Positions 359 to 21,623 of a stretch of 64,000 nucleotides of DNA are shown one piece after another. Source of the DNA: a virus. Position 1 is the first letter of the stretch, and every line of letters begins with the position of its first letter. Below the pieces are notes generated by a model. That model saw nothing but the letters and a program-made list of their open reading frames with translations. It was not told the DNA's origin and searched no databases. The stretch lies in IMG/VR virus record IMGVR_UViG_3300012931_000019, positions 1 to 64,000 of that record; one strand, given 5' to 3'. The position numbers and the translations under genes are program-made.

Positions 359-385
359 AATCTCACTCCCTTTAAAATTCGCCTT

Positions 386-667
386 TTATTCCCAATAAGA
401 AATACTATTATTTACGACTTCTTCTATTAATCCAATCTCACCAATAATATCATTTGCAATTCCAGTATCCATAATTATTAGTGAATTATCTTCATATTTT
501 CTTATGATATTAACTGCCTTAGTTATATATTTGCCTATCTGTTCAGCTTCTTTTCTTGAAATCTTTGTCGCCGTTATCTCAGATTTGCTTGCTGTCACCG
601 TCATATCCGTTGTTAATTTTTGTATAGTATCATTCCAAGCAAAAGGATTCTCTTCTTTCTTTTTCAT
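386..667 (-). CDS. hypothetical phage protein
   Basis: array ORF; stop codon lies inside 18-bp site 372-389. Confidence 0.7.
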   Translation of the reverse strand: MKKKEENPFAWNDTIQKLTTDMTVTASKSEITATKISRKEAEQIGKYITKAVNIIRKYEDNSLIIMDTGIANDIIGEIGLIEEVVNNSISYWE

Positions 668-1071
668 ATTAAATCACTTCCATTTAACATACTTTGCAAT
701 TGCTTCTTCCAAAGCTTCTTCATTTATGATTGGTAAATCTGGCAACATAAGATGCATTGATTCTGCATCTGTTAATCTTCTTCCTCTTATAATATCAATA
801 TCAACATCTGCTTTATTATATTTTCTATTTAAATATTTCTTAATTCCCATAGAATCCTCATTTATCTTGTTTTACTATGCGTTCAATCTCGATAATATCT
901 TCTGGATCAAACTCAAGTTCTTCCCATTGACCTTCTTCAATCAATTTTTTAGCTTCTTCTTTTGAACCTGCTTTAACAGTTCCTTTTGCCGATCCTTCTA
1001 CTCTCATTACAAATTTATAAGTATTCATTTCTTCTATCTCCTTTTACTATGAAATAGTATTTTGATTATAA

Positions 1072-1272
1072 TTAAACCTGATTTTCATAAGCACTTAATT
1101 TCTTTTGCAACTCTATTCTTTCAAGTAATAATTGTTTGTGTTCTTGCAAAAGCAAATCTACTAAAGCTATTTCCATTTTATCGTAACAATCAGCATTTAA
1201 TTCACGGATGACTTTTTTACAGCCTATATGATTACTTATTAATTCAGCTTTTGTCCATTTCTGCTTTTTCAT
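1072..1272 (-). CDS. hypothetical phage protein
   Basis: array ORF; start moved to ATG behind SD. Confidence 0.65.
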   Translation of the reverse strand: MKKQKWTKAELISNHIGCKKVIRELNADCYDKMEIALVDLLLQEHKQLLLERIELQKKLSAYENQV

Positions 1273-1337
1273 AATTACACTTCCTTTCAAATCCTTGTTT
1301 CATCGGTTTGGGAAAAATCCCAAATAAAAATCTCTCA

Positions 1338-1622
1338 TTATAATTGTCTGCTGTTTGGCTGTTCTCCTGCTGATTTAAGTATATTAAGTAAGTTGTTTGG
1401 CATCTGAGTCATCCAGTGATGATTTCTATCTTCTAAATGATTTCCAAATATTTCAGAGTAATCTTCAGCTTTCCATTCTTCTCTTGGCACAGGAACAATT
1501 TCACCACCGCAAGAACATTTTAAATCATCTGGTTCATAATCTCTTTTTAAATCACCGCAATAATATCCTGCGTCTTTACCACATTTATTACATTTTCCAA
1601 CAGTCCAATCATTAATATCCAT
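1338..1622 (-). CDS. hypothetical Cys-rich phage protein
   Basis: CxxC...CxC motifs; start moved to ATG behind SD. Confidence 0.65.
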   Translation of the reverse strand: MDINDWTVGKCNKCGKDAGYYCGDLKRDYEPDDLKCSCGGEIVPVPREEWKAEDYSEIFGNHLEDRNHHWMTQMPNNLLNILKSAGEQPNSRQL

Positions 1623-1651
1623 ATTAATCAACTCCCTTTAAATCCCGTATT

Positions 1652-1933
1652 TTATAATAATTCTTGGAATTTTTGACCTAAAAAATCTATTTGAATTTCT
1701 GTTAATTGTCCAACTCTTACTCCAATATTTTTTAACTTGTCAGTTTGTAAAGCATTACCGAGCATGGCATAATTATGTTCTTCAGTTAAACCATTAATCC
1801 TGCCCAAATCAATATTACTCATAACTGTTTTTTGATACCTTGAAGTAATAGGAATTGCTACCGTTCCGCATATTATATGGGGTCTATAATATCCATCGTT
1901 GTTTTGATACATATAAACTTCTCCGTGTTTCAT
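1652..1933 (-). CDS. PemK/MazF-like protein (divergent, orphan)
   Basis: KHGEVY...RP...AIPITS...VGQL pattern typical of PemK/MazF fold. Confidence 0.55.
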   Translation of the reverse strand: MKHGEVYMYQNNDGYYRPHIICGTVAIPITSRYQKTVMSNIDLGRINGLTEEHNYAMLGNALQTDKLKNIGVRVGQLTEIQIDFLGQKFQELL

Positions 1934-1980
1934 TTTGTTCACTCCAATCCATTAAATTTCTTATTTTAATTGCTTATCTA

Positions 1981-2193
1981 TTAACCAATTATACTATGAA
2001 TTGTGAAATCACAATATTTCGTCTTATTTCCAAGATATCTTATGTAACCCATATGTTCACTAGATATCTCATAAGTTAATGGTTTATTTAAATCTCTTTC
2101 AAACTGTTTTACTGCTTTTTCTATATTAGGAGCATTAATTATAATCGCTTCATCTTCATCTTCTATAAATTTACAAATTTTAAATTTCGCCAT
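1981..2193 (-). CDS. hypothetical phage protein
   Basis: array ORF with SD. Confidence 0.65.
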   Translation of the reverse strand: MAKFKICKFIEDEDEAIIINAPNIEKAVKQFERDLNKPLTYEISSEHMGYIRYLGNKTKYCDFTIHSIIG

Positions 2194-2446
2194 ATTTTCA
2201 TCCCTTTCTTAAATTCAAATTCTTAAATTCAAATAAATTTCTCGTTTTAACAGCATTTAAAATAATCAATCATATCTGTTATCATTGCTTGTGCATATTC
2301 AATTCTATCTTCTCTCATTTCCAATCCAGAATTATAATAGTCTTCATCCCAATCCCACGTTTCAACTTGCTTTTTCATATCTTCAAGTATTAATATAGAT
2401 TTTTCTTTTAACTGCGAATCCATTTTAACCCTTCTTTCTTAATCAA

Positions 2447-2884
2447 TCATTTACTCAACAACCGAAACGAAACACATTCTCCAGCTATCATCTTATGATA
2501 GTAAATTTTATCATCATAATTAATGATCCTGATTCTTACTGGCTGTTCTGCTTCGTCATAAAAATTATCATCCGAAAGAAAAGTACCGCATCTTAAAACT
2601 GTTGGCTCTATAGGTGATTGTAATGCTTTTTCTAAAATAGACTCATACTCTTTAATCCCTTCAGTCGTTTTAATAGTTAATGTATGGTTCTGTTCATCAT
2701 AGTTTTCATCGACTTCATCATCCAATTTAATTTTTGATAATATTCCTTCTGCAATTTCTTTAATACTTTCATAATTAATGGGAATGTCTTCACCTTTTGT
2801 TGTTCTTTTATTTTCACCCTGAACTATTAATCCTTCTTTATATAACTTCATTGTCGGATTATCATTAAAATTACCTGTTGTCAT
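2447..2884 (-). CDS. hypothetical phage protein
   Basis: array ORF, SD AAGGAGG. Confidence 0.75.
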   Translation of the reverse strand: MTTGNFNDNPTMKLYKEGLIVQGENKRTTKGEDIPINYESIKEIAEGILSKIKLDDEVDENYDEQNHTLTIKTTEGIKEYESILEKALQSPIEPTVLRCGTFLSDDNFYDEAEQPVRIRIINYDDKIYYHKMIAGECVSFRLLSK

Positions 2885-2921
2885 TTTAAATTCCTCCTTA
2901 ATTTAGAATGAAATCAAGTTT

Positions 2922-3173
2922 TTAAATGGTTTCTTCTACAATATAACCACCATTATGCCATTCAATTATTTCTTTTTTGGTTTCAATCTTTTGTATATCT
3001 TCGTCATGAACATAAAAAATAATATTATTCTCTTCTTTTGAAATACTTGTTATTTCTTGACACACAATTCTTATACCAAACTCGTTATTAAAGAATTTTT
3101 CAATGATTCTTGGTGTATTTTTATCACGACCTACATTTTTCCATACATACATTTTGTTAAAATTATTATTCAT
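2922..3173 (-). CDS. hypothetical phage protein
   Basis: array ORF; stop inside site 2908-2925. Confidence 0.7.
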   Translation of the reverse strand: MNNNFNKMYVWKNVGRDKNTPRIIEKFFNNEFGIRIVCQEITSISKEENNIIFYVHDEDIQKIETKKEIIEWHNGGYIVEETI

Positions 3174-3225
3174 TTTCTTTTCCCTTTCTCCTTAAAAGCC
3201 TTTAAAATAAGGTTTTGATATTCTT

Positions 3226-3450
3226 TCATTTATTCAAATTCATATTAATACTTCTACTTGTAATTTCTTTGATGATCTGTTTGCCAGATGTTTTTATTAT
3301 ATAATTTCCGTGTTCCCCAGCGTTTACAACGTCTTTATAGATCATATTATCTTTTACAGCATTCTTTACAATTTTTATAGCTTTCTGAAGATCGTCTTCG
3401 TCAAACACTTCTACGGTAAGCTCCACTTCTGTTTTAACTTTAAATTTCAT
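3226..3450 (-). CDS. hypothetical phage protein
   Basis: array ORF, SD GGGAGG. Confidence 0.7.
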   Translation of the reverse strand: MKFKVKTEVELTVEVFDEDDLQKAIKIVKNAVKDNMIYKDVVNAGEHGNYIIKTSGKQIIKEITSRSINMNLNK

Positions 3451-3472
3451 ACTTTACCTCCCAAACTATTAA

Positions 3473-3712
3473 TCATTCTTTTGCTAAATCGTCTTCGGCT
3501 TCATAGCGATTTAGATACAGATTTTCGCCAACTATTCCAGTAACAGAAGTGGTGTAGAGTGATGGCATTTCATATTCAACTTTGAATTTGTTAGTGCCAA
3601 ATTCATACGAAACCAGCCTTACAATGACCCCTTCATTTACTTTATGGTTTCTGATTTTGTAAACCTTGTCTCCAGTTTTACATGGTATCTTAATCGTGTT
3701 TTCCATTTTCAT
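3473..3712 (-). CDS. hypothetical phage protein
   Basis: array ORF; IPCKTGDKVY start common in Firmicute phage hypotheticals. Confidence 0.7.
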   Translation of the reverse strand: MKMENTIKIPCKTGDKVYKIRNHKVNEGVIVRLVSYEFGTNKFKVEYEMPSLYTTSVTGIVGENLYLNRYEAEDDLAKE

Positions 3713-3811
3713 TCCTCACTTTCTGAAAACATAGTAGAAATTTATTTATCAAATTTCCCTTAAATCTATATTTTTATATGGTCTAAACCCGTACATTTCA
3801 AACTATGTCTT

Positions 3812-3842
3812 ATTATACCATATCCATGTGTAGTGTCAATAC
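3812..3842 (-). promoter_or_regulatory. sigmaA-type promoter with palindromic -35 operator
   Basis: TTGACA-16-TATAAT with extended TG; GTAGTGTCAATAC at 3830-3842. Confidence 0.75.
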
Positions 3843-3939
3843 ATTTCCATAATTTTATTTATTTTGTTTTTGTTTTTATTTCTTAGTAATTAATGCACAT
3901 GCCAATGCTATTAATCCAAAATATATAATACCCATTTAT

Positions 3940-4233
3940 TCAACCCTCCGTTCCTGTACTATTAATATTTTCATCATTAACAAATTCATAAGGATCGATG
4001 TTATAAGTAATTGCAAATAATAAAATGTCTTGTACAGTGGCGATTACGGGATTGGCAGAATTAATCTGTCCTTTAATCTTTTCTTTCTTCCATTCCAATT
4101 TAATCATAACATCGGTATATTTTATGTTATGGTCTTTACATATCTTGATAAAATTTTGCTTGATAATTTTTCTATCTGTCTCATTGTACTTCTTTATAAA
4201 TTCTAATGCTTCAATCTGATCTGTTAATTTCAT
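3940..4233 (-). CDS. possible XRE-like HTH protein
   Basis: helical pattern ending ...LLFAITYNIDPYEFV resembles XRE C-terminus. Confidence 0.4.
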   Translation of the reverse strand: MKLTDQIEALEFIKKYNETDRKIIKQNFIKICKDHNIKYTDVMIKLEWKKEKIKGQINSANPVIATVQDILLFAITYNIDPYEFVNDENINSTGTEG

Positions 4234-4301
4234 ATATTTTGTTACCCCTTTCTAGTTATATTCTTTAATTGTAATCCGATAAAAATCGTGTTTCAACGGG
4301 T

Positions 4302-4586
4302 TTATTTATTTAAATCTTTTAAAATGTCTCTGGACTGTTTAAGTAACTCAATTGCTTCAGGACAATTAACATCATAATTGTCTGTTATTCTCTCAATAAT
4401 ATCATCAATTTCTTCTTCATATGTTTCTGTTACCCTGTACTTTTTAAATGTTACTTCACCACTTTTAGTATTCACAAATATCTCAAGTGGATCGCCTTCG
4501 CGAATTCGCATTGTTCTTCTGATTTCCTTCGGAATAACTACACGCCCAAGATCGTCGATTCTTCTCACTATTCCTGTTGATTTCAT
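4302..4586 (-). CDS. AbrB/SpoVT-family DNA-binding protein (SpoVT N-terminal-like, no GAF domain)
   Basis: MKSTGIVRRIDDLGRVVIPKEIRRTMRIREGDPLEIF signature. Confidence 0.9.
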   Translation of the reverse strand: MKSTGIVRRIDDLGRVVIPKEIRRTMRIREGDPLEIFVNTKSGEVTFKKYRVTETYEEEIDDIIERITDNYDVNCPEAIELLKQSRDILKDLNK

Positions 4587-4769
4587 ATTAAAATTCCTCC
4601 TTTTCTGTTATCTTCTTATTTTTACTACGTTTATACACTTTACCAGATTCTACGATCCTGTCACAAGGATTAAGACAACCCCATGACCGACGAATAGTTA
4701 AGATTAATGGTTTTTCTTTTTTCTTTCTTTTTTTCATGACGGTTGTTCTCCTTTCAGTTTTGTAATAAT

Positions 4770-5066
4770 CTAAATTCTGTCTGGTGGAAAGATATGCTCC
4801 GAAAACAATTCATTCCATTCAAATCCCATCGGATAATAAGGCTGACCGCATTCCAGAACGTGCTTCAATGCTTCTTTTCGGTTCAAAAACTCTCCAGTGT
4901 CGGTTAAGAATCCTTGTTCTGCTCTTACAATATCAAGCCTTGTCTGTTCGTCGCACGTTTCTTCGTTGCAGTTTGCGAACTTGATTCTGATTTCCGTCAA
5001 TGGTTCTATATGCCACCTACCTTGATAAATTTGATCTCTAAATTTAATTGCCGCCGCTGTTATCAT
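4770..5066 (-). CDS. conserved-type phage hypothetical protein
   Basis: ITAAAIK...QGFLTDTGEFLNRKEA motif; start behind SD AAAGGAG. Confidence 0.7.
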   Translation of the reverse strand: MITAAAIKFRDQIYQGRWHIEPLTEIRIKFANCNEETCDEQTRLDIVRAEQGFLTDTGEFLNRKEALKHVLECGQPYYPMGFEWNELFSEHIFPPDRI

Positions 5067-5142
5067 TTTTTCTCCTTTAAGTATACTCATGGTATACTAA
5101 TTTCCTTTCTATTATTTATAATTTTACTTTAAAATGTTAGAT

Positions 5143-5370
5143 TTAAGCGGATTTTCTATGTAGAAAATCTTCAATGTACATTGGTCTAAAAAATACATCT
5201 TGATATCTCATTTTTCGCAAATCCCAAACTTTACTACATAATGATGGTGTATTATAAACCCCGTAATCAATTTCAATTTCATAAACTTCGTTAATATTAA
5301 TAACGTCGCCTTGTTTAAAATCTATGCCGTTCTGTTCTTTCAGTTCTTGTCTAGTAAATCTATAATACAT
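5143..5370 (-). CDS. hypothetical phage protein
   Basis: array ORF bounded by sites 5129-5146 and 5395-5412. Confidence 0.7.
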   Translation of the reverse strand: MYYRFTRQELKEQNGIDFKQGDVININEVYEIEIDYGVYNTPSLCSKVWDLRKMRYQDVFFRPMYIEDFLHRKSA

Positions 5371-5608
5371 TTTTATATCTCCTTCCTAAATACCGTGAAA
5401 GATCAGATTTAACGAATTTTAAATATTACATCCTGCATTCCATCTTCGATATCGTTCAATAAAACTAATGAGAATATTTTTTGGAAGTCTCTTTAAATGC
5501 TTTTCCGTTTCTCTCTTATCAAAAGATAAAATACTTTCAATTAATTCTGTTTTTGTACATTCGTATAAATCTTTCATTTTTTATTCTCCTTTCCATTCCT
5601 ACAAATTA

Positions 5609-6046
5609 TCAGATTGATATGGTTTTCGCATAATTTACCATTTTTAATAGTTGACACTTTAATCTTTCATTTTCTTCTGCCAACTTAGAATATGGTGTTA
5701 TGATTGCTATTTTGTCTTCAACTTCATATTCCTTTTCTTTAATCAATCTTTCTGCTTCTGCCGTTTGTTCCGCTGTTAATCCCCTATTCCATCCAGCAAA
5801 TATATAGATTATTTCGTCGGTATTTTTATTTTGCATTGCATATTGTGCTAATAAATCAGCTTCTTCTATTGTTTCAATGTAATCGTACAATCTTACTCTT
5901 GCACCATTATTAAGAATCTTGGTGACTCCATACCCATTTGTTATACTCATTTTTATTTCCTCCTTCTTATCTTCTGGACATTTTATAAAATCCAAACAGT
6001 GTTTACATATAGTTGGTACACCTTTATAAATACACTCTGTCACCAT
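5609..6046 (-). CDS. hypothetical phage protein
   Basis: array ORF; second in-frame start with strong SD at 5950. Confidence 0.65.
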   Translation of the reverse strand: MVTECIYKGVPTICKHCLDFIKCPEDKKEEIKMSITNGYGVTKILNNGARVRLYDYIETIEEADLLAQYAMQNKNTDEIIYIFAGWNRGLTAEQTAEAERLIKEKEYEVEDKIAIITPYSKLAEENERLKCQLLKMVNYAKTISI

Positions 6047-6079
6047 AATATTTCCTTTCAAATAAACCTTTTAAATGCT

Positions 6080-6424
6080 TTAACAAGCCATCAGTTTAAT
6101 ATAATTTCTCATAATATGCTTTACTGCGCGAATCACAACATCTACTGATTTCTGATTAAAGTTTGAAAAATTAACAGTTATTTCTTTGATTTTAATAATA
6201 TTGTTTTCTTCTGTTATTTCTTTTAATTGTTCCAAAATCTCTCGACAATCATTGTAAGAAAGTTTTTCTTCAATTGATTCTAAATATTCAATTCCTTCTA
6301 CACCGATTAATGATTCACCAATGGTATAAGGTGGTTTTATATTTATAAATTCAATCTTATCTGTTATAGTAGCATTAACAGCTACATCACCATATCCTAA
6401 ATAAACTGTATTACCTTTTATCAT
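6080..6424 (-). CDS. hypothetical phage protein
   Basis: array ORF with SD. Confidence 0.7.
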   Translation of the reverse strand: MIKGNTVYLGYGDVAVNATITDKIEFINIKPPYTIGESLIGVEGIEYLESIEEKLSYNDCREILEQLKEITEENNIIKIKEITVNFSNFNQKSVDVVIRAVKHIMRNYIKLMAC

Positions 6425-6425
6425 T

Positions 6426-6617
6426 TTATTTTACCTCTCCAAACATTTCACCAAAATTATATTCAATACGATCCATTACTTTCTGAAATGCTTTATATTC
6501 TTCACTTTCATGATCACCATTTGCATTTTGCATTCCAATCAACATTGCTATAATAGAATCCCTCTGTGATGCTCTACCTTCTTTTCTTACTTCTGTATAA
6601 TCCATTTCTAATCTCAC
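6426..6617 (-). CDS. hypothetical phage protein
   Basis: array ORF. Confidence 0.6.
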   Translation of the reverse strand: MRLEMDYTEVRKEGRASQRDSIIAMLIGMQNANGDHESEEYKAFQKVMDRIEYNFGEMFGEVK

Positions 6618-6654
6618 TTTCTCATTTCCGTTAAATCACCGATTTGCTTGGGTT

Positions 6655-6852: not shown

Positions 6853-6886
6853 CTGTTATACCTCCATTTCCGATGAATCATTGAAT

Positions 6887-7108
6887 TTATAGGCTTTTTA
6901 ATTCATCTTCAGCATCTTTTAAATAACCTTTATAATGTTCAATTATCATATCTAAAACTACTGGTTCTAAATCACAAGTTTCCATTTCTCGATAATAAAT
7001 TTTAAATTCATCTGGATAACTTCTATTTTCTAAACTTGTTAAGAATGCCTTATATCTATTAATTTGTTCTACTACCCTTGCAATTTTGTTTGCTCTATTC
7101 ATGTCCAT
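6887..7108 (-). CDS. hypothetical phage protein
   Basis: array ORF bounded by sites 6873-6890 and 7133-7150. Confidence 0.7.
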   Translation of the reverse strand: MDMNRANKIARVVEQINRYKAFLTSLENRSYPDEFKIYYREMETCDLEPVVLDMIIEHYKGYLKDAEDELKSL

Positions 7109-7153
7109 TTTATTTTTCTCCCTTCATTTCCTTTAAAACTCTGATTTTAACTA

Positions 7154-7589: not shown

Positions 7590-7862
7590 TTAATTTCCTA
7601 TTAATATCCATAACTTTCTTTTTCCTAGTTTAATTGTTATAAAATCAAGATGGTTTAATTCAATGCACAAATCTCTTCTATTACGTTTAATTTCACTAAT
7701 AGATGATGTTAATCCTAAATCTACCAATATTTTAGGCAAGAATCTTTCATCTGTTCTAATAGTCTTTTCAAATTCGTTATTGTCCCAATCATTTTTATTT
7801 AAAGCAAATAATAAACTAGGATCAACAATCGGCTCACCAACTATAATATTTTCAACATGCAT
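7590..7862 (-). CDS. S4-like domain protein (TyrRS C-terminal-like)
   Basis: LPKILVDLGLTSSISEIKR...IKLGKRK resembles TyrRS S4 domain. Confidence 0.5.
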   Translation of the reverse strand: MHVENIIVGEPIVDPSLLFALNKNDWDNNEFEKTIRTDERFLPKILVDLGLTSSISEIKRNRRDLCIELNHLDFITIKLGKRKLWILIGN

Positions 7863-7909
7863 TTCATCACCTTCCTTTCAATTACGATGAAACTTTGGTT
7901 TTATAGACT

Positions 7910-8080: not shown

Positions 8081-8120
8081 TTTGTTGACTCCTTTCATAA
8101 AACCCAAGCAAAGACTGATT

Positions 8121-8306
8121 TTATTCAAACCTATTTCTAAAATCATTTCTAACTTCTGTTAATGCGTTCCATCTACCCATCATAGATGCAATGTTTTCTT
8201 TAGATTCTTTAATATTATCATTAAGCCACTGTTCAACTCTTTTTATTTCTTCATCAAGTTCATTTGTATAGTCAATAATCTCTTCTGTTAATTCTGAATA
8301 TGTCAT
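8121..8306 (-). CDS. hypothetical phage protein
   Basis: array ORF with SD. Confidence 0.6.
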   Translation of the reverse strand: MTYSELTEEIIDYTNELDEEIKRVEQWLNDNIKESKENIASMMGRWNALTEVRNDFRNRFE

Positions 8307-8348
8307 ACCTTAACTCCTTTCCGATTAAAACCATTCTTTCATTTGCTT

Positions 8349-8768: not shown

Positions 8769-8815
8769 TTTGATCTCTCCTTTTAAACCCAATGAATCGT
8801 TAATTTCATTTGCTT

Positions 8816-9070: not shown

Positions 9071-9417
9071 TCCTTTAGGTTTAATACCGATATACAGATT
9101 GTTCTAATTCAAGCCCATACATTATTCCTATGCCATTCTTTTCTGCTATCTCTCTTGCTTTATATTTTGCTTCTTTTAAACTTTGAGCATATATTTTATG
9201 TTGTGTTTTTTCTCCGTTTTGTGCGTATGTCATAATATATATTGCTTTATGCCATGCCATTTTTTAACTCCTTTCCATTATTTCAATTGCAATTGTTAAT
9301 GCTTCATAATATGTTTTATCGTCTATATAATCTTGTCTTATTTCTTTTATTGCCTGTATTGCTCGTTCAATCTCCATATTTTTATCTCCTTAGTTCAATT
9401 AAAATCTCCATTCTATG

Positions 9418-9669: not shown

Positions 9670-9737
9670 TTCTTTACCTACCTTTCAAATCCACATTTGA
9701 TTCTAATTGTCCGTATAGCCGATAACACAGCTTTGTT

Positions 9738-10142: not shown

Positions 10143-10320
10143 CGTTCTATTCTCCTTTCAAAATCCCATGAATTAATTCATTTATTTGGTTACAACTTTA
10201 CTTCCGCTTTATCTTTACTTATCCAATGATAACCTTCGCTGTTATTCTCCGGCTCACATATATACTGATCTGCTGTTTCATCCAGTACGACATATACTTT
10301 GCCATTAAAGATAATCTGTT

Positions 10321-10659: not shown

Positions 10660-10748
10660 TTTATTTTCTCCTTTGTTTATTATTTTAGTTTAATCATAGA
10701 CACGATCATGTACTTTTTGTCTATGATAATGGCTATGAAATGACCGTT

Positions 10749-10988
10749 TTATCTGCAATACTCTTTTGCAATTTCATCAAATTCATTTTCAATTAAATCT
10801 ATTACTGTGTCTAAATTCATTGCATCAAGCAGACAATCTTTCTCACTTTTTAATTCGCTTTCAATATGTCTGCGTGTTACATCAGCTAAATTTTTATCTT
10901 TCAGCATTCTTTCAAAGTATCTAATATTTTTCTTTCTTAAATCTATGATTGTTCCAACTCTTCCTATTACCGTATCATTAATACTCAT
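10749..10988 (-). CDS. hypothetical phage protein
   Basis: array ORF; stop inside site 10735-10752. Confidence 0.7.
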   Translation of the reverse strand: MSINDTVIGRVGTIIDLRKKNIRYFERMLKDKNLADVTRRHIESELKSEKDCLLDAMNLDTVIDLIENEFDEIAKEYCR

Positions 10989-11330: not shown

Positions 11331-11362
11331 ATAATATGCCTGTTATAGTGTATTGTCAATAC
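11331..11362 (-). promoter_or_regulatory. sigmaA-type promoter with palindromic -35 operator
   Basis: TTGACA-17-TATTAT; GTATTGTCAATAC at 11350-11362; A-rich UP element. Confidence 0.7.
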
Positions 11363-11611
11363 TTATTCTGAAATTATTTTTTATTTTATTTAGAGTCTAA
11401 TTACAAAAGATTCAAAGAAATAATTAGTCTCTTTTATTTCATAATCTGCAAGATGTATAGCCTTCTTTAATACATCACCAATAAAACCAAATTCAACCTC
11501 TTTACCATCTACAAATATTGACAGATATGGTACTGGTATATCATTAAATTTAAACTCTCTTAGCTTCATTTTTATTACCTCCTACACCTTTAAAATAATC
11601 GTTTTATCGAC

Positions 11612-12041: not shown

Positions 12042-12279
12042 TATTTCATCACATCCTTTCAAATCGCTGTTTTATTCCCAACACGCACAATATTTAGTTT
12101 CTTTTATGTTGCTATCCCATAATATTTTATCAGCAATATCATTATTGAATGAAACATTAAGTTCTCTTCTGCCAGTATCGTAATTATGATGAATAAATGA
12201 CCCTTCTATTCCGTTCTTTTCTTCAATTTCTTTAATTATCTCCCACAGCATTTTTAAATCTCCTTTCTTTCCAATAAAT

Positions 12280-12939
12280 TCAATATTTTATGTTAATTTC
12301 ATTTGTGATCTGTTCAACAAGCTTGTCAAGTTCTTCATATTTTGATAATAATAATTTCAGTTCGTCAAGCGTGATTTCTCTTTCATTGCCATTATCACCA
12401 CATACGCAAATCTTTCCACTACTCCATATTCCAATAGGCACTCCGAATGTTGTGTCATAGTTCTTATTTTCAAATTTCTTTTTTAAAATGCTATATTCGT
12501 CATGTTCAAGGAAATAGTGTTTTTCTTCTTTTTCGCAATCTTTCAATACTCTATGGAAACATTCGTCTACTATATTTTCATATGTGTCATAACTACCATG
12601 CCTATTTGCTTCAGTAATCCATCTTTCCATATTTAAAAATCTAATTTTACCGTGATGATAATCTCTATCTATCATCTTTAAAGTGTCGTTTCTGTTTAAC
12701 CATGCTTTTAGCGATACGGTTTTAACACTACTATAGTAATCTTTTGGTAAAGATTCCTTATCAGCCTCAAACTTATCAATCAGATTTAGCAGATAACTCA
12801 TTTTGCCATCTTGCATTAAATCAATAAAAGCTATTTTCTCTTCTCTGTTTATGTTTTCACATGAATATATTTTTTCTTTACCAAAATATGTGTTGCACTT
12901 TTCATTTAACAACTTCATTTCTTCAACATTCCAATTCAT
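12280..12939 (-). CDS. hypothetical phage protein
   Basis: 219-aa array ORF, SD GGGAGG. Confidence 0.8.
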   Translation of the reverse strand: MNWNVEEMKLLNEKCNTYFGKEKIYSCENINREEKIAFIDLMQDGKMSYLLNLIDKFEADKESLPKDYYSSVKTVSLKAWLNRNDTLKMIDRDYHHGKIRFLNMERWITEANRHGSYDTYENIVDECFHRVLKDCEKEEKHYFLEHDEYSILKKKFENKNYDTTFGVPIGIWSSGKICVCGDNGNEREITLDELKLLLSKYEELDKLVEQITNEINIKY

Positions 12940-12988
12940 CTTTTTTACCTCCCAAATTTACCTTAAAATCAACCTTTGATTCGGTTTA

Positions 12989-13108: not shown

Positions 13109-13158
13109 TTTCAATCTCCTTTCAATTTTCCGATAAAAGCAATCTTTCATTCGCTCCG

Positions 13159-14011: not shown

Positions 14012-14045
14012 TTTGATTCCCTCTCTTTCCTTTAAAACAATCTTT

Positions 14046-14228
14046 TTAAGCTGTTATTTCTTCTGTAATCATTCCTATATATCCTTTATCTGTATAAGGA
14101 TATATTTCATTAAACTTTTTATCGGCTTCTATAATATTTTCAGCTTCGACTATAATGTGTCCACTCTTTATAAATTTTGTCTTCGCTTCATCTTCAAAAA
14201 TATTTGTTATTACTATAAATTTATTCAT
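14046..14228 (-). CDS. hypothetical phage protein
   Basis: bounded by perfect sites 14032-14049 and 14250-14267. Confidence 0.7.
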   Translation of the reverse strand: MNKFIVITNIFEDEAKTKFIKSGHIIVEAENIIEADKKFNEIYPYTDKGYIGMITEEITA

Positions 14229-14273
14229 GATCTTCCTCCTTATCTACCAATGAAAGCAGTTTTTCATACTATA

Positions 14274-14501: not shown

Positions 14502-14533
14502 ATCTTACCATTTTGAAATTGTATTGTCAATAC
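14502..14533 (-). promoter_or_regulatory. sigmaA-type promoter with palindromic -35 operator
   Basis: TTGACA-17-TAAGAT with extended TG; GTATTGTCAATAC at 14521-14533. Confidence 0.7.
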
Positions 14534-15022: not shown

Positions 15023-15049
15023 AATCCTAATTCCTTTCTGTTAAGGCTG

Positions 15050-15289: not shown

Positions 15290-15316
15290 TTTTTACCTTC
15301 CTTTCAAACTACAATT

Positions 15317-15679
15317 TCATGCGGTCTTTCTTTTTATTAACTTTTCACTTGCCCATTTGCCATAACCAATTAAAAAAGTTAATGTCTTGCACATAGAATC
15401 ATAATCTAGCTGTGTTTTGCCGTTCCTTAAATTGTTCAATGCTTCTAACGATTCAATGCTGTTATTAATACATTTATTTCTAGTGTCACCTTCAGCAAAT
15501 TTGATTCCCGTTTTAATATCTGTAGCTTCCCAACCGTTCATTTCATAATCTTTACCGTCGATATTCATTGTTCTTTTTGAGTATGCTATTTGATTTACTT
15601 CATCAATATATCCATTACACAATTTAACTCCTTTTTCGTATACATTACCCATAAGTTTATAAAAATTATCTTTCTTCAC
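15317..15679 (-). CDS. hypothetical phage protein
   Basis: GTG start with SD AAGGAGG; stop inside site 15303-15320. Confidence 0.7.
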   Translation of the reverse strand: MKKDNFYKLMGNVYEKGVKLCNGYIDEVNQIAYSKRTMNIDGKDYEMNGWEATDIKTGIKFAEGDTRNKCINNSIESLEALNNLRNGKTQLDYDSMCKTLTFLIGYGKWASEKLIKRKTA

Positions 15680-15693
15680 TGTTATACCTCCTT

Positions 15694-16035
15694 TTATGCT
15701 TGCGCTCTATATAATGCCGCCGTGTAACTGTCATAAACATAATACCCTTTGTCTTTCATGGATAAATATTGTTCTTTTGTTATAGGTGTAATATATCCGC
15801 TTGGCTGTCCATAGCTGTCTGTAGGCAAATAATAGTATTCTTTTTTATTTTTGCTTGTTACTATTATTTTTTCTATTGGCTGTTGTTCTTTCTGTTCTGT
15901 GTTAAAATTCATTTCCAACGTTTCCGCTTCTAACTTTGTTATAAGATTATCTTCAACTAAAAGTTTTAAATATTTGCGGTATGCTGTCAATGATTTTTTG
16001 CGGTTTTCAATTATTTTATATCTATCTTGCATCAT
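15694..16035 (-). CDS. hypothetical phage protein
   Basis: array ORF with SD. Confidence 0.7.
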   Translation of the reverse strand: MMQDRYKIIENRKKSLTAYRKYLKLLVEDNLITKLEAETLEMNFNTEQKEQQPIEKIIVTSKNKKEYYYLPTDSYGQPSGYITPITKEQYLSMKDKGYYVYDSYTAALYRAQA

Positions 16036-16048
16036 AATCAATTCTCCT

Positions 16049-16441
16049 TTATAGTTCTATTTTGCCAATCTCAAAATTAACATCGATTTTTGTTGTCGCA
16101 TTGCTAATCGGATTTATACCAATGATTCTTTTACCTTCAAATCTTTCAAATTTAAAAGCCAATGCGTTACCATTCTTATTAATATAAAACCAATCGCCTT
16201 TTTTAAGCTGACTGAGAACATTTATTTTTTCTTCTAACTTCTTTGTTTGATCTACTTTTTCAACAATAGATTCAATTGATACTATAGGAATGTTATAGCC
16301 TACTCCTTCAATATTTCCGACAAATTTTTTCTGATTCAGTTTTACAAATTCTGCAATTTGACCGCTTTTTAACTTTACTTTATCGCCCGATTTTAATGTC
16401 ATGGCAAGTTTTAATTGTTCATATGTCGGTTCACTACACAT
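16049..16441 (-). CDS. hypothetical protein with two internally repeated beta-rich units
   Basis: LKSGDKV... and LKKGDWF... repeats. Confidence 0.7.
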   Translation of the reverse strand: MCSEPTYEQLKLAMTLKSGDKVKLKSGQIAEFVKLNQKKFVGNIEGVGYNIPIVSIESIVEKVDQTKKLEEKINVLSQLKKGDWFYINKNGNALAFKFERFEGKRIIGINPISNATTKIDVNFEIGKIEL

Positions 16442-16454
16442 TTTAAAATCCTCC

Positions 16455-16997
16455 TTATTTTGTAATCAAATATACTAACATATCCTTACTTACTTTGTCA
16501 TACACTCCGTTAATGTCATTCTTAACCGCATAAATCATCATTGATCTAATATGCGCTTGTGCATTTTTCTTTGTCTGTTCGCTTGCATTCTTGCTGTTCA
16601 CAAAGTTTTCAATGTCATTGACTGTTATACTGGCAAAGTCTTTACTATTAAGTGATTCCAGAAATGGGCCGAGATTTACCTTATACTGTTGAAAACTAGT
16701 TACCTTTTCAAAACTGCTTTGGAATGCATCATAATATTTTTGATTGTCTTTTGAAAGGTTATAGTCTTTTATAGCAGATTTACCGGCATTCTCTGAAATA
16801 GTATACTTATAGGTAAAGTGTTTAATGTCAATGTTAAGGCTTGAAATGACATCTTTAAGCGTGTTTATTGTGGTCTGTACTGATTTATTCATTCCAAGTT
16901 TTTCGCATACCTCTGAATAGGTTTTGCTGTTCTTTACCGCTTCGAGAAATGTGTCGCTGTTAAACTCTCTGCGACCGATTTTAATAGTTGATTCCAT
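16455..16997 (-). CDS. HTH-like + phage-integrase SAM-like (core-binding) domain protein, no catalytic domain
   Basis: N-term EAVKNSKTYSEVCEKLG...IDIKHF; C-term QQYKVNLGPFLE...DFASITVNDIENFV...SEQTKKNAQAHIRSMMIYA. Confidence 0.6.
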   Translation of the reverse strand: MESTIKIGRREFNSDTFLEAVKNSKTYSEVCEKLGMNKSVQTTINTLKDVISSLNIDIKHFTYKYTISENAGKSAIKDYNLSKDNQKYYDAFQSSFEKVTSFQQYKVNLGPFLESLNSKDFASITVNDIENFVNSKNASEQTKKNAQAHIRSMMIYAVKNDINGVYDKVSKDMLVYLITK

Positions 16998-16998
16998 T

Positions 16999-17223
16999 TT
17001 AATTTTCCTCCTTAATAATTATGGTTTCCAAAACATCTTCAAGTTTAAATATTTTAGGATATGTTTCTTTTTGTTCAACCTTATTCCATAATTGGCAAGT
17101 GGTTTTATACTCTTCTGGATTAGGGTGAAAAGCTTCTGGATTAACGCTATTACCGTTTTTTACCGCAATGCTAAGTATTTTATCAAGTAATTGTCTTTCC
17201 TGTTCTGTTACTTCAATTTTCAT
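16999..17223 (-). CDS. hypothetical phage protein
   Basis: array ORF with SD. Confidence 0.65.
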   Translation of the reverse strand: MKIEVTEQERQLLDKILSIAVKNGNSVNPEAFHPNPEEYKTTCQLWNKVEQKETYPKIFKLEDVLETIIIKEEN

Positions 17224-17274
17224 GATCTTATACCCTCCTTCAAAGGTAATGAAATGTTGTTTTCATATGGTCTG

Positions 17275-17574
17275 TTATGCTAACCATTCAATTTTTGAAA
17301 CTTGCAAATCTTTTAAAGAATATTCTATTCTTTCTAATTCCTTTTGCATTTCTACAAGTTTGATATGATAAAATGCTTCTAGTTCAGTTTGAAAAAATTC
17401 CTCGTATAAATGAGGCTTTAATCCTTTTAACAGTTCTATTTCTCCCATATTTTTTATTGCCCAATCACTAAAATGTCCCTGTGATACTGCAAATTTACCA
17501 TTAAATACTTTCTGTTCTTCTTCTGATAATTCGTAAATATGAAAGTTTTCATTTACCTGTTTAATATATTTCAT
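17275..17574 (-). CDS. hypothetical phage protein
   Basis: bounded by perfect sites 17249-17266 and 17597-17614. Confidence 0.75.
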   Translation of the reverse strand: MKYIKQVNENFHIYELSEEEQKVFNGKFAVSQGHFSDWAIKNMGEIELLKGLKPHLYEEFFQTELEAFYHIKLVEMQKELERIEYSLKDLQVSKIEWLA

Positions 17575-17825
17575 TTTTTAATCCTCCTTAATAGGTTTAA
17601 AATGCTGATTTTAATGGCTCTATAATTCTTCTTTTGCTTCTGTCATGGCTGTAGATAAATAACTACTTAATTCTTTTGATCCGTCGAGTTTTGCTTTTTT
17701 TAAACTGTTAATAATTAAATTTAATTCACTTTCGTACAAGCAGATTCCACGATATACATTTTCTTTTTTCGTTTCTTTTTTAATAACCATGTTTTATCCC
17801 CCTTATTCTTAAATCAAACTGGTTT

Positions 17826-18011
17826 TTATTTCAACTTGTCTAATAAAACATTGAGTATTTTTGTTGTTTCCTCATTTTGAACAACTCCGATTTTCAATAT
17901 CTTTCTGTTATACATTTCATGCGGTATATAGTTTCTGTTAATATATTCTTGTTGTTCTATCTTGATTTTTGTTGTAAATTGTAATACGTTAAGTAATTCT
18001 CTTAAAATCAT
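17826..18011 (-). CDS. hypothetical phage protein
   Basis: array ORF with SD. Confidence 0.65.
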   Translation of the reverse strand: MILRELLNVLQFTTKIKIEQQEYINRNYIPHEMYNRKILKIGVVQNEETTKILNVLLDKLK

Positions 18012-18022
18012 TGTATTCGCTC

Positions 18023-18316
18023 CTAAAATGCAGTTAGATAAAATGAAATTGTTTTACCTTCTGGAATGAAAATTTTTTCTCTTATACCATCAACATTAGC
18101 AAGAATATAATTATTAGTAATTTTTATAGGTGAATAATACATCCCGTCAAAATAACAATATTCACTGTTTTGATCTGTAAAAATGCCCTTAAACTGTATT
18201 TTTGTGTATTTAATGTCAATTGCCTTTTCAATTAGCTTTATGCGTTTATTTACTTCCTGTAATGATGATATTTCATCAATTACAAGTGTTTTCTGTGATT
18301 CAATCTTTATTTTCAT
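18023..18316 (-). CDS. hypothetical phage protein
   Basis: array ORF, SD AAGGAGG. Confidence 0.7.
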   Translation of the reverse strand: MKIKIESQKTLVIDEISSLQEVNKRIKLIEKAIDIKYTKIQFKGIFTDQNSEYCYFDGMYYSPIKITNNYILANVDGIREKIFIPEGKTISFYLTAF

Positions 18317-18375
18317 GCTGTTATAATCCTCCTTAAACCTTATGAATTGTTCATTTTATTTGCTCTGTTATATGA

Positions 18376-18642
18376 CTACTTGATAACATGCTGATATGTT
18401 GATATATCAAAATAATGATAGTATTTATATGGTTTGCAAGCACCAAAAGCATTTTTGTGTCGTGTTACCGATATACAGTAACAATCGTGTTCTTCTCCGC
18501 AAACATCAGTAATTTTAAAAGTATCTTTTAATACTTTCATTTCTGATAATCTTTCACCGAAAAATTTTAGAGTATCTGCATCGAAAAAATGAGACTCTCC
18601 ACCTTTATTGATTATTTTATCTTTCAATTCATAAAATTCCAT
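18376..18642 (-). CDS. conserved-type phage hypothetical protein
   Basis: SHFFDADTLKFFG motif; start behind SD. Confidence 0.7.
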   Translation of the reverse strand: MEFYELKDKIINKGGESHFFDADTLKFFGERLSEMKVLKDTFKITDVCGEEHDCYCISVTRHKNAFGACKPYKYYHYFDISTYQHVIK

Positions 18643-18706
18643 TGTAAATACCTCCATATAATAATATTATTTATTCGCTGTAACAAAAGGATAAGGCTGT
18701 TATACC

Positions 18707-19303
18707 TTATCCCGCAATCTCCTGTAATTCATTGGCTAATTCGTATAAATCACCGTCAAATATTTTACTTAATTTGTCGGCTTGTTTCTGACATGATTTC
18801 CAAGTCTTTTCTGCTGTTCTGCTGTCTTCATCATAACCAAATTCAGAACAAAATTCTTCAAAAGAATAATCTCCGCTTATTGCATCAGATACAAAACAGT
18901 AAAAAGCATTTAATATATCATACTCTCTATTGAGAATCGGGTTATTTATACTTGCCCAAAATTCAAAAGTTATACTCTGCTTTGTTTCCGTGTTGGTTAC
19001 TTTAACCATATGATTATTGAAATTGTCACTGTTACAATTCCATTTTTTGTTGCCTTTATAACTTGCCTTAATTTCAAACTGTTTAAATGTTGCCTTGTTT
19101 GTTTCCTGTTCTGTATGCTGTTCTTCATTGTATTTGTCAAAGATTGAAATGATTTCTGTTATGACTTCTTCGGGAATAGGTTCAACAAGCCAAGAATGAC
19201 CATATTTATAGCCGTTATCCTCATACAAATTAACAGCTTTTAATGCTTCGCAAACTTTTGTGTAGTCATAATTATTTGTTTCATTCCGTCTCTTTAGCTT
19301 CAA
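18707..19303 (-). CDS. phage early-type hypothetical protein, 5' end uncertain
   Basis: GYKYGHSWL and SFEEFCSEFGYDEDSR motifs; no clear SD at the given start. Confidence 0.6.
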   Translation of the reverse strand: MKLKRRNETNNYDYTKVCEALKAVNLYEDNGYKYGHSWLVEPIPEEVITEIISIFDKYNEEQHTEQETNKATFKQFEIKASYKGNKKWNCNSDNFNNHMVKVTNTETKQSITFEFWASINNPILNREYDILNAFYCFVSDAISGDYSFEEFCSEFGYDEDSRTAEKTWKSCQKQADKLSKIFDGDLYELANELQEIAG

Positions 19304-19478
19304 TAACTTTCATATCTGTTCCGCTATAAACAATCCAGTACATAATATGTACAGCTTCATGCTTTGCGTCATCTTCATCAATTGCGTCAACAGGAATAAA
19401 AACAGTATTGTTATTGAGTTTCATTTCAACCATATATTTTTTATTCATGGTTTTAACCTCCGTTCTGTTATTACCTTA

Positions 19479-19510
19479 ATGTTATAACCAATTAAATGTA
19501 CTGTCAATAC
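19479..19510 (-). promoter_or_regulatory. sigmaA-type promoter with palindromic -35 operator
   Basis: TTGACA at 19502-19507 within GTACTGTCAATAC; -10 TAACAT or TATAAC. Confidence 0.6.
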
Positions 19511-20564
19511 TTTTTTAATTTTATTTCATTAACAACCTACGCAAAACATTTTTATGACCATTTTTGCATCTTCTGGCTTTACTTCCTGTTCTTTGCTCTT
19601 TACTTTAAAAGCAAATTTCAGAATGTTCCATGCTTCTTTTGTTTCCTTTTCTGATTCTGTTATAAACTTTACACGATTTAATATTTCCTGTGCTGACATT
19701 GGTTTAATCCTCCTTATTACGCTATTAATTTTTTATTTTGTTCTTGTTCATGCTGTTCTATTTCCTTGTTTGCTTCACTGATCGTGTCTGTACTGGCAAT
19801 AAATTTGCCGTATAGAGTTATTATAAAATGTCCGTATTCCGGTTTGATTGTATATGTATTTATCATTCGTTTGTTGCCTCCTAAATATTATGAGAAATAA
19901 TATCCAGATAGCAAACTAGACAATAGACAAATACAATAACCTCAAATATGCCTATCCCGTGTTGTAAATGATAAATAAAGCGATTTTTCATTCTCATTCA
20001 CTCCTTTTTATTAATATGTTTTTGATTTTATTTACAAAATACTTTATAAACCGCATAACAGCCAATCTTTGACCTATCGTTATGCAGTCTAACAATATTC
20101 TATATCTAACCCTTTTTTGATTGATTAATCTTTGTATCGTCTTCTTGATACAACATTATTTTTATTTAGATAATAATAACCGTCTGCATGATATACAATT
20201 CTTTCTCCGTCTTTACCTAAACAGATATTTTTTAATTGAAAACCTAAACTAGTGTTAACATAGGCCGTTTTAATGATATGATACATTATGTTTTTACCTC
20301 CTTTTATGCGTTGTTATACCTTTCAAATACTGGTTTGATAGGCTCTGTTATTCTAATCTATCAGAGTCTTTCCATATCTTGTAAAGTTCATTATTAAATG
20401 ACCATATATCAAAACTATTGTGTAAATCAAAGTTGAATTTTTCACTTTCCCATGTTCCCATAGCTTCAATTTTCGTTATAGTTTCAATATCATTTCTGTT
20501 AACTTCTATAATCTTTTTCATGATCTGTTAACCTCCTTTAATTTAATTCCATTAAAAATTGGTT

Positions 20565-20795
20565 TTATGCCGTCTTTCTAGTAAAATATAACATTGTATT
20601 ATTACCGCCGTAACAAGTCGCTATTTTCTGTATAGGAATATTAAATTTCTTTGATATTCCTTCTTTATGCAGATATTCGGATAATGTTATATCAATGTTA
20701 TTTTGTGAATCAAGATATAAAAAACCTATATCATCCATATGTTTTTTAATACCTTCAATATCACATTCAAACATACATTTTGGTATATAATTCAT
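20565..20795 (-). CDS. hypothetical phage protein
   Basis: bounded by sites 20551-20568 and 20821-20838. Confidence 0.7.
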   Translation of the reverse strand: MNYIPKCMFECDIEGIKKHMDDIGFLYLDSQNNIDITLSEYLHKEGISKKFNIPIQKIATCYGGNNTMLYFTRKTA

Positions 20796-20847
20796 TTTAT
20801 TTTTCCTCCTTAAAATCGGTTTAAAAACTGGTTTTCATAGGCTTTTG

Positions 20848-21117
20848 TTATACTCTTTTATGATTAATTTTTTGAATCACTTTCAAATTATAACCAACAA
20901 TATTTTCAAGTTCATTAAATAAGCTTTTATATTCTTCTGGTTTTGCTTTCTGACAAGAGTAATAATAATCATAACCGGCTTCTGCATGCTGTCCTATATG
21001 CTCATAACATAATATATTACCTCTGTTTGCCGGTTCATATGGGAAAAATGCCGTAATTGTGTTATCTCTTTTGTCCTTCTTAAAAATGACTTCTGTTATT
21101 ATTTTTCCTTTTTCCAT
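20848..21117 (-). CDS. conserved-type phage hypothetical protein
   Basis: VIFKK...AFFP...CYEHIGQH motif; start behind SD. Confidence 0.7.
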   Translation of the reverse strand: MEKGKIITEVIFKKDKRDNTITAFFPYEPANRGNILCYEHIGQHAEAGYDYYYSCQKAKPEEYKSLFNELENIVGYNLKVIQKINHKRV

Positions 21118-21178
21118 TTCCTTTTTACCTCCTAAAATTTTACTTCCGAGCAAATGTTACATTTAACGGTTCTGTTAT

Positions 21179-21571
21179 TTATTCCGCATAACGTTTTGTT
21201 TTGTCTGTTTCTCCATATACAATGGAATCATAAACACGGTTTAAAGCTTGATATTCTGGATTGTTATATAAATAATTGTCAATTTCATTCTGATAAATAA
21301 AACCGTGTTTTGTTTCTGCATCTTCACAAATTGCATTGATTTTATTTTCTAAATTTTGTGCTATTTCCTGTATGATTTTATGTTCTTCAAAGTCAGTCAT
21401 ATTATGGATATTAGGAAAAGATATTTCTTTTATTTCATGCGTTTCATGATTGGTCATTCTGAATTTACTTTCTCCTAAATATTCAACAATAGAATTTTGA
21501 AAATCTTCTTCTGAAAAAGTATATTCTTTCTTAAACCATGCCGATATTTTATTGATTAATTCTTGATTCAT
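21179..21571 (-). CDS. hypothetical phage protein
   Basis: array ORF, SD AAGGAGG. Confidence 0.75.
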   Translation of the reverse strand: MNQELINKISAWFKKEYTFSEEDFQNSIVEYLGESKFRMTNHETHEIKEISFPNIHNMTDFEEHKIIQEIAQNLENKINAICEDAETKHGFIYQNEIDNYLYNNPEYQALNRVYDSIVYGETDKTKRYAE

Positions 21572-21623
21572 TTTTGTTAACCTCCTTTATTGGATATGAA
21601 ATTATTGTTTGATTGGTTCGTTG

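Follow-up and report, generated by a model that had tools for sequence, protein, structure and literature searches.

Phage modular evolution has long been thought to need linker sequences at the borders of the modules, and few concrete linkers are known. The viral DNA described here is a stretch of 64,000 nucleotides (hereafter the window), the initial 64 kb of the record IMGVR_UViG_3300012931_000019, which is 82,153 bp long and was judged 49% complete. Its first 21.6 kb hold an array of small genes whose junctions frequently carry a short palindromic site composed of two inverted arms and a variable six-base centre, and comparisons among Bacillus relatives suggest that such sites may be joints at which phages exchange genes. 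The window has a GC content of ~30%, and its transcription direction is that of the minus strand up to 32.4 kb and of the plus strand after, with a strand switch at ~32.5 kb. Beyond the switch lies a gene for a YonO-type single-chain RNA polymerase of 873 aa (33217-35838, plus strand), which has 52% identity to SPbeta yonO and finds its best match in Clostridium phage D-1873 (59% identity). The phage is placed in the SPbeta-like group on account of this YonO homologue. Downstream of YonO follow genes for a beta-CASP nuclease, a YonJ-like exonuclease and the portal protein, as well as further late genes. All gene positions are those of our own crude gene caller.

A first-pass annotation had listed 36 sites between 372 and 21613 under the pattern WTVAAW-N6-WTTBAW, and had claimed that they mark gene junctions, possess a polarity and delimit insertable cassettes. 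The pattern matches 52 times in the window, 37 of these matches falling within 1-21613, as against 18.84 ± 4.44 times (maximum 32) for 100 dinucleotide-shuffled sequences, which confirms that the junction palindromes are real. Among the listed sites, 32 of 36 fit the pattern exactly; those at 5395, 6631, 9399 and 20551 are near misses, that at 5395 being doubtful, and the sites at 12274, 20322 and 21149, plus weaker ones at 5601 and 8107, were absent from the list. When the core T[ACG]AAA-Nk-TTT[TCG]A was counted in the 82-kb record, 39 copies were found at k = 6 and 2-15 at the other values of k from 2 to 11. The enrichment is thus confined to the six-base spacing, as expected from the proposed Xer/dif-type layout of inverted arms around a six-base centre. 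A weight matrix yields 58 sites of at least 12 bits in the 82 kb, and 100 matches of at least 10 bits compared with 4-16 in Markov shuffles. At a 13-bit cut-off, 51 of 54 sites are situated at gene junctions, so that the claimed concentration there also holds.

On the coding strand the element covers about 30 bases, which can be written as aaa-S-C-n-n, W-T-[A/G/C]-A-A-A, six free bases, W-T-T-[T/C/G]-A-W, n-G-G-a-a. Conservation reaches beyond the 5-6 arm bases to a C at -3 and a G at +3. The downstream flank is polar, 27 of 36 sites having a G at +2 and 24 having one at +3, and 52 of the 58 sites are oriented along transcription on either side of the 32.5-kb switch; the polarity that had been claimed is therefore substantiated. 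At 11 sites the stop codon of the upstream gene reaches 4 nt into the site, and a start codon lies 10-29 nt downstream of the site at 31 of the 51 junction sites.

Within the array, the sites are on the minus strand unless stated otherwise (scores in bits are given in brackets). The first 5 kb contain those at 372-389 (23.1; the upstream stop codon is inside the 5' arm), 1049-1066 (12.7, weak), 1286-1303 (25.1), 1638-1655 (17.9), 1952-1969 (20.4), 2233-2250 (18.7), 2908-2925 (18.7), 3202-3219 (21.6), 3760-3777 (23.3) and 4279-4296 (23.3). They are followed by sites at 5129-5146 (19.3), 5601-5618 (15.1, degenerate), 6057-6074 (24.9), 6631-6648 (21.9, with one degenerate arm), 6873-6890 (24.2), 7133-7150 (22.9), 7887-7904 (23.0), 8107-8124 (15.7, assigned to the plus strand, as its flanks fit the other strand better), 8325-8342 (25.0), 8792-8809 (22.8), 9399-9416 (14.3, degenerate) and 9684-9701 (19.5). 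From 10 to 16 kb they occur at 10168-10185 (18.8), 10735-10752 (23.3), 11590-11607 (19.7), 12058-12075 (19.5), 12274-12291 (16.7, newly found), 12963-12980 (24.7), 13133-13150 (24.6), 14032-14049 (22.1), 14250-14267 (16.7) and 15303-15320 (26.1). The remainder of the array carries sites at 17249-17266 (17.1), 17597-17614 (22.3), 18342-18359 (20.9), 20322-20339 (27.6, newly found and the top score), 20551-20568 (13.5, degenerate), 20821-20838 (21.2), 21149-21166 (12.9, degenerate and newly found) and 21596-21613 (15.4). Past the range surveyed earlier, a plus-strand site lies at 23559-23576 (14.0). About ten sites belong to the plus-strand late region, including those at 39818-39835 (minus, 15.6), 54208-54225 (plus, 21.7), 56323-56340 (minus, 16.3), 59853-59870 (plus, 16.8) and 63394-63411 (plus, 19.5), as well as a pair at the left (59922-59939, minus, 15.3) and right (61997-62014, plus, 20.5) edges of an agr-like module.

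The presence of a site depends on the length of the gap between genes. A site is present at 38 array junctions whose intergenic gap is 27-68 nt, and at none whose gap is 23 nt or less; of the junctions of at least 74 nt, 2 of 13 have a site and three have a sigma-A-type promoter. These three promoters lie at 11331-11359, 14502-14530 and 19479-19507. A consensus sigma-A-type promoter (12/12, TG-extended) at 3812-3839 on the minus strand shares a 595-nt gap with the sites at 3760 and 4279, the former lying between this promoter and the following ribosome-binding site. The median site spacing is 451 bp, and the units between sites hold one gene (22 units), two (8), three (6) or four to six (3). 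Most units thus contain a single gene, in line with the earlier description of them as mostly promoterless blocks of one to three genes; at least four sigma-A promoters are located inside the array.

The kind of signal in the sites

Both arms show the same preference at the variable position, namely A>G>C with T once or never. Covariation between positions 3 and 16 is absent (23 Watson-Crick pairs vs. 23.2 expected), and the flanks behave likewise. In RNA folding, 9 of 12 sites gave 0 to -1 kcal/mol with z-scores near zero. A shared arm preference without covariation speaks for recognition of duplex DNA by a reader with two-fold symmetry rather than for a hairpin, and an RNA or DNA hairpin is ruled out by the lack of arm covariation together with the weak folding. 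No terminator stem-loop was found in the sites by covariation, folding or promoter/terminator scans. A sigma-A promoter is likewise excluded, since the two halves are 6 bp apart instead of 16-18 and promoter-like matches are at background level (120 vs. 116.6).

The operator of the SPbeta repressor, SPBRE, which is read by MrpR/YopR/SroF, invites comparison as a repeated palindrome in the same phage family whose reader has a tyrosine-recombinase fold (PMC10516654; bioRxiv 10.1101/2025.11.27.690993). It is a different sequence of 15-16 bp, is bound by a catalytically dead monomer, and is located at about ten sigma-A promoters in SPbeta (PMC10516654), in places other than those of the junction sites, and hence was rejected as an identity for them. 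In the SPbeta record SPBRE is annotated as a 16-bp palindrome ahead of yopM, and this palindrome is unlike the junction site. A YonO promoter was rejected on several grounds. The YonO of SPbeta initiates at a single site (PMC5467207); it is the opposite strand that carries the motif most densely; no motif match was found near the SPbeta late start region; and G002, G004 and G005, whose YonO is closer to that of the present phage, have few sites.

One alternative to a recombination function is that the sites punctuate expression, either as a dyad bound by a dimeric phage protein that serves as operator or roadblock, for which the stoperators of mycobacteriophage L5 are the model, or as an internal promoter or processing signal, the starts of modules then explaining the boundaries described below. 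The position 10-29 nt ahead of the start codon at 31 of 51 junction sites and the polar flanks would suit such a role, and a helix-turn-helix dimer would match the 5-6-5 geometry. Sites and sigma-A promoters are for the most part found at separate junctions, and the site at 3760 lies inside a 5' leader, both of which are in keeping with it. On the other hand, placement relative to promoters varies, since a promoter precedes the site at 3760 in the window and a site precedes the aimR promoter in SPbeta; three forms of such a signal (SPbeta repressor operator, YonO promoter and RNA hairpin) are rejected above; and other phages that infect the same host lack the motif. We regard expression punctuation as distinctly unlikely to be the explanation of the sites.

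Motif distribution and gene exchange in Bacillus phages

The core is in excess only at the N6 spacing in G001 (70 copies vs. 12-25), G003 (17 vs. 2-6), G002 (35) and SPbeta (41 vs. 5-16). Its perfect form, TAAAA-N6-TTTTA, is present in 30-35 copies in each of five SPbeta-type genomes (SPbeta, phi3T, Goe11, SPbetaL1, and Goe14 or SPR), as against 0-2 for the reversed control, and in 24-64 copies in most records of SPbeta-type Bacillus phages and prophages. Many YonO proviruses have 10-64 copies with a strong strand bias. Near YonO itself most relatives show few motif matches, and the enrichment emerges over whole records. The layout in SPbeta is that of the window: the first arm contains the stop codon, and a ribosome-binding site and start codon follow 19-32 nt on. 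A sister clade of eleven records at ~43% GC has no copy at all. Other phages of the same host lack the motif (SPO1 0, SPP1 0, phi105 0, SP-10 1, AR9 9 vs. 10 in its control), which excludes a general host signal. Large Bacillus siphoviruses without YonO carry it, namely FADO (33 vs. 1), PJN02 (31 vs. 2), Kirov (25 vs. 1), Thrax3 (27 vs. 3) and vB_BcoS-136 (23 vs. 6); in Lactococcus phage 949 it is weak (7 vs. 3). Deep conservation of the site centres was considered and discarded, as sharing between distant genomes is at chance level. We found no paper describing this junction element.

Because the nearest relatives have no DNA that aligns with the array of the window and almost none of its proteins, gene exchange was studied in the SPbeta group, and breakpoints were examined in SPbeta, phi3T, Goe11, SPbetaL1, SPR, FADO and PJN02. 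When SPbeta is compared with four relatives, 27 of 158 ends of homology blocks lie within 10 nt of a site, whereas 1.1% would do so at random positions; for intergenic ends the share is 25% vs. 4.1±2.1%. The expectation of the first-pass annotation that breakpoints between related phages would fall at the sites is thus borne out far above chance. Viewed by junction, 15 of 16 early-region junctions with a site are block ends, compared with 19 of 53 without; after matching for spacer length the figures are 12 of 13 and 14 of 29 (p = 0.007). Blocks start at the upstream edge of a site and stop at the downstream edge, so that the ends coincide with the outer edges and not with the borders between arm and centre, and the site is common to both genomes whichever side has been swapped.

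Each pair of genomes shares 16-29 identical 16-mer sites, where ~0.3 would be expected by chance. Among 249 shared-site pairs, the 40-nt flanks are alike on both sides in 84, on the downstream side only in 46, on the upstream side only in 39 and on neither side in 80. A freely varying operator centre would not stay exact where both neighbouring genes have been replaced, which is a further argument against expression punctuation. Across the Bacillus phages, each site thus retains its own centre and its rank in the series, although the genes next to it change. Between consecutive shared sites, 33 intervals are wholly replaced. One such interval, bounded by the same pair of sites, measures 796 bp in SPbeta, 2238 bp in Goe11, 1324 bp in SPbetaL1 and 262 bp in SPR, and no two of these are mutually alignable. 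Single-gene insertions with two flanking sites face an empty locus with one site.

The exchange extends to phages with hardly any common DNA. FADO and SPbeta-type genomes are alignable over 0.3-3.4 kb of the 165 kb of FADO, yet they share 5-7 identical sites. Comparisons of FADO or PJN02 with SPbeta-type genomes gave nine segments of at least 90% identity, and 10 of their 18 ends are no more than 8 nt from a site edge, against an expectation of 0.8%. In one interval bounded by the same pair of sites, FADO (49735-50095) holds a 329-bp cassette that is 100% identical to that of SPR (3804-4162), and PJN02 (154725-154974) holds a different 213-bp cassette, 99% identical to those of SPbeta (131157-131406) and phi3T. 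These are thus alternative single-gene cassettes at 99-100% identity, and the identity begins inside the first site and ends at the last base of the second. To judge from the sequences, they are the clearest sign that genes may be cut and pasted at the sites.

The claim that the units are insertable cassettes is therefore sustained in part: gains, losses and replacements of genes have their breakpoints at sites and whole cassettes differ, all of this in relatives, and the comparison with integrons does not hold. In a true integron-like system, an integrase would move circular single-gene cassettes by way of folded single-stranded sites. Imperfect palindromes that recur between small, mostly promoterless genes of the same direction, with a tyrosine-recombinase-like gene heading the array, do recall attC sites. 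The sites, however, measure 18-24 bp as against 57-141 bp for attC, with no stem covariation and weak folding, and in relatives they stay with the locus when one or both neighbours change instead of travelling with the cassette. There is no divergent IntI-attI-Pc platform, as the recombinase-like gene is on the same strand and ~8 kb from the nearest site; in addition, sigma-A promoters lie inside the array, and sites are also present in the late operon. The integron reading is largely refuted by these differences in size, folding, platform, internal promoters and linkage of site to locus, and we consider it highly improbable.

Probable crossover joints and a candidate enzyme

We judge it probable, if only just, that the sites are crossover joints where co-infecting or resident relatives exchange genes. 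Each joint would consist of two inverted arms of 5-6 bp (T, not-T, AAA), a variable six-base centre and a few polar flank bases, and would recombine with the joint of another phage that has the same centre. The segment between two joints would then be swapped as a cassette, with gene order and the joints themselves retained, while the differing centres would prevent the joints of one genome from recombining with each other. This reading supposes that centres must match for exchange, that a site-specific recombinase, of the YopP family or another Xer-like phage enzyme, carries out the crossover in place of general recombination, and that the sites of the window, whose arms are looser at one position, may act like those of SPbeta. 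Heterospecific lox/FRT cassette exchange is an engineered system of this kind, in which sites with identical arms and different spacers recombine only with their like. The likeness lies in the exchange of the segment between two unlike sites, the rest not being rearranged. The lox/FRT system, however, is a human construct with a known enzyme and known chemistry, whereas the behaviour of the junction sites is deduced from comparative genomics alone.

Several natural systems offer partial parallels. The pdif/dif modules of Acinetobacter plasmids (PMC6449649) resemble the joints in their short inverted-arm sites with a six-base centre in accessory regions, and in the recurrence of genes flanked by two sites in different replicons. 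They differ in that their 11-bp arms are bound by host XerC/XerD, compared with 5-6 (up to 9) conserved arm bases here, and that the sites flanking a module are mutually inverted, whereas 52 of the 58 sites here share the direction of transcription. Furthermore, the phage centres are locus-specific labels, and any enzyme acting on them is probably phage-encoded. The PeSL motifs of T4-type phages (PMC2839356, PMC4122927) are likewise repeated intergenic motifs of hyperplastic small-gene regions at which insertions, deletions and replacements between close relatives end. A PeSL, however, combines a sigma-70 promoter with a terminator hairpin and recombines by homology between copies, whereas the junction sites lack a promoter consensus and a stable hairpin and each have a centre of their own.

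The PeSL, as regulatory motifs able to drive modular shuffling (PMC2839356), and the linkers postulated for modular phage evolution set the precedent for another explanation, in which the sites are passive linkers kept for some other reason or none, and general, phage-encoded or illegitimate recombination crosses there with no dedicated enzyme. The breakpoint and cassette data are silent on which machinery makes the crossover, no recombinase strictly co-occurs with the motif, and most mosaic boundaries are found elsewhere, all of which would accord with such linkers. The shared identity, however, is often just the 16-bp site between unrelated flanks, which is very short for homologous recombination, and the centres are exactly kept though they differ between sites, a conservation that micro-homology of 5-bp arms does not need. 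In addition, the blocks end at the outer edges of the sites, as expected for exchange between joints of equal centre. For these reasons we hold passive linkage to be unlikely.

If the sites are crossover joints, the candidate enzyme in the window is a tyrosine-recombinase-like protein of the YopP/SroD family (31348-32394, minus strand, 348 aa). Its homology to SPbeta YopP is full-length. A profile of eight homologues of this protein matches SPbeta yopP (2e-27) and the phi3T counterpart (2e-34), and a YopP-like protein encoded on a 21.8-kb contig (P0001) is 95% identical to it. It falls below the Pfam cut-off for Phage_integrase, and no solved structure was matched by its sequence. The residues at the catalytic positions are R166, H257, K260 (in place of the second Arg), H283 and Y293. 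Three alignments indicate that the first Arg, both His and the Tyr are retained throughout the family; by its residue set, the protein does not appear to be a catalytically complete tyrosine recombinase. MrpR was rejected as the reader, because the window's protein is a homologue of YopP and not of YopR.

Homologues with 25-29% identity occur in large Bacillus siphoviruses without YonO, and non-SPbeta-type phages with a YopP-family gene also carry the motif. Among 35 records counted for the motif, 17 have a YopP-profile match, and all 17 carry some motif copies; most are strongly enriched, and G015, G024 and G025 are near the control count. The eleven sister-clade records have neither a YopP-profile match nor the motif. 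In G007, which was outside the profile search, the motif possibly occurs without YopP. G007 and three further genomes with the motif (G001, G058 and G002) each have another Xer-like recombinase, located within the early region in the latter three. The co-occurrence of YopP and motif is therefore suggestive and not strict, and the 31348-32394 protein is a candidate, no more, for the enzyme acting on the sites.

A number of observations weigh against the sites being crossover joints worked by such an enzyme. In the SPbeta group, some 80% of the boundaries of the mosaic fall outside the sites, and the comparisons are pairwise among five related phages, so that the events are not independent. In the array, the closest relatives of the present phage share no alignable DNA with it. 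No junction reads or circles were found in the two runs that contain the phage, which is weak evidence given that only contigs were available; the contigs of the two runs gave identical pieces, and two joints with 21-nt sides were regarded as spurious. Lys replaces the second catalytic Arg in all 15 aligned YopP-family members, and no YopP homologue was found in the available sequence of G001 (72% complete), G058 (91%) and G002, which have the motif. A role in expression, perhaps as a second function, would also suit the set position of the site ahead of the ribosome-binding site and its polar flanks.

The crossover-joint reading would have consequences beyond this phage. The element is short, can be counted and occurs in the well-studied SPbeta, and it coincides base for base with the ends of swapped genes, even where the phage families have nothing else in common. 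If a recombinase acts on it, this would explain how large temperate phages keep their gene order while turning over accessory genes, would give the conserved YopP a function, and would supply natural recombination sites that exclude one another. With the window, the known range of the element grows beyond Bacillus phages to include an uncultivated low-GC phage with clostridial sequences as its closest YonO matches, and one arm position proves open to variation. A wider proposal, which is tentative and which we think doubtful, is that several otherwise unrelated families of large Firmicutes phages share a natural cassette-exchange system run by the YopP-family recombinase with its Lys for the second Arg, with common arms, locus-specific six-base centres and single accessory genes that pass between families. 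The families concerned would be the SPbeta-like, the FADO/PJN02-like and the Kirov/Thrax-like phages, as well as the clostridial-type wetland phage described here.

Neighbouring genes and further observations

The phage was detected in two public DNA runs, both of them wetland metagenomes, and no RNA run with the phage was listed. A near-identity search of positions 1-22000 against phage records gave no match, and single-protein searches for related loci, made with a 219-aa array protein and with the recombinase-like protein, found none. Rfam returned nothing at gathering score over the window, and a lax Rfam search of 22500-27500 on both strands, with E up to 1, returned a chance microRNA match only and no hammerhead, 23299-23361 included. 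Within the latter range, 24666-27241 is a 2.6-kb region of mostly ~25% GC that is essentially gene-free according to the gene caller; it contains two weak tandem repeats only (periods 13 and 35) and has no credible Rfam match.

Two genes between this region and the strand switch deserve mention. The first (27242-28180, minus strand) encodes 312 aa with an N-terminal GIY-YIG nuclease domain (5.7e-10) and is probably a free-standing homing-type endonuclease; this gene and the adjoining 28216-29088 have counterparts in G005 at 55-57% identity. The second is a TnpB-type gene (29698-30822, minus strand), with matches to OrfB_IS605 (2.5e-22) and the Cas12f1-like TNB domain (5.2e-21), which sits between the small-gene array and the YopP-like gene, with no adjacent tnpA seen. 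Directly 3' of YonO, 36101-37522 (plus strand) encodes a beta-CASP/metallo-beta-lactamase nuclease with an RNA-specificity domain, which is common to G001 (45% identity) and G002 (40%). As for yonO itself, the gene is annotated as two pieces in phi3T, Goe11 and Goe14, with an open reading frame inserted between the pieces in Goe11 and Goe14, and it is continuous in SPbeta and SPbetaL1.

Three further genes of the array may be mentioned. An AbrB/SpoVT-type protein of 94 aa with a swapped-hairpin DNA-binding domain (4302-4586, minus strand; PF04014, 4.4e-10) was considered as a reader of the sites and rejected, as it occurs in this record and G001 only and is absent from the SPbeta group. A homologue was found in G001 and in none of the SPbeta-group genomes searched; the G001 version is a SpoVT-like protein of 178 aa that is 73% identical over the first 50 residues. 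A 180-aa array protein (16455-16997, minus strand) weakly resembles the SAM-like DNA-binding domain found at the N-terminus of phage integrases, with E values of 0.003-0.007 that miss the cut-offs. Finally, the gene at 7590-7862 (minus strand) in the early array has a paralogue with 49% amino acid identity at G000 69628-69897 (plus strand), in the late region past the window.

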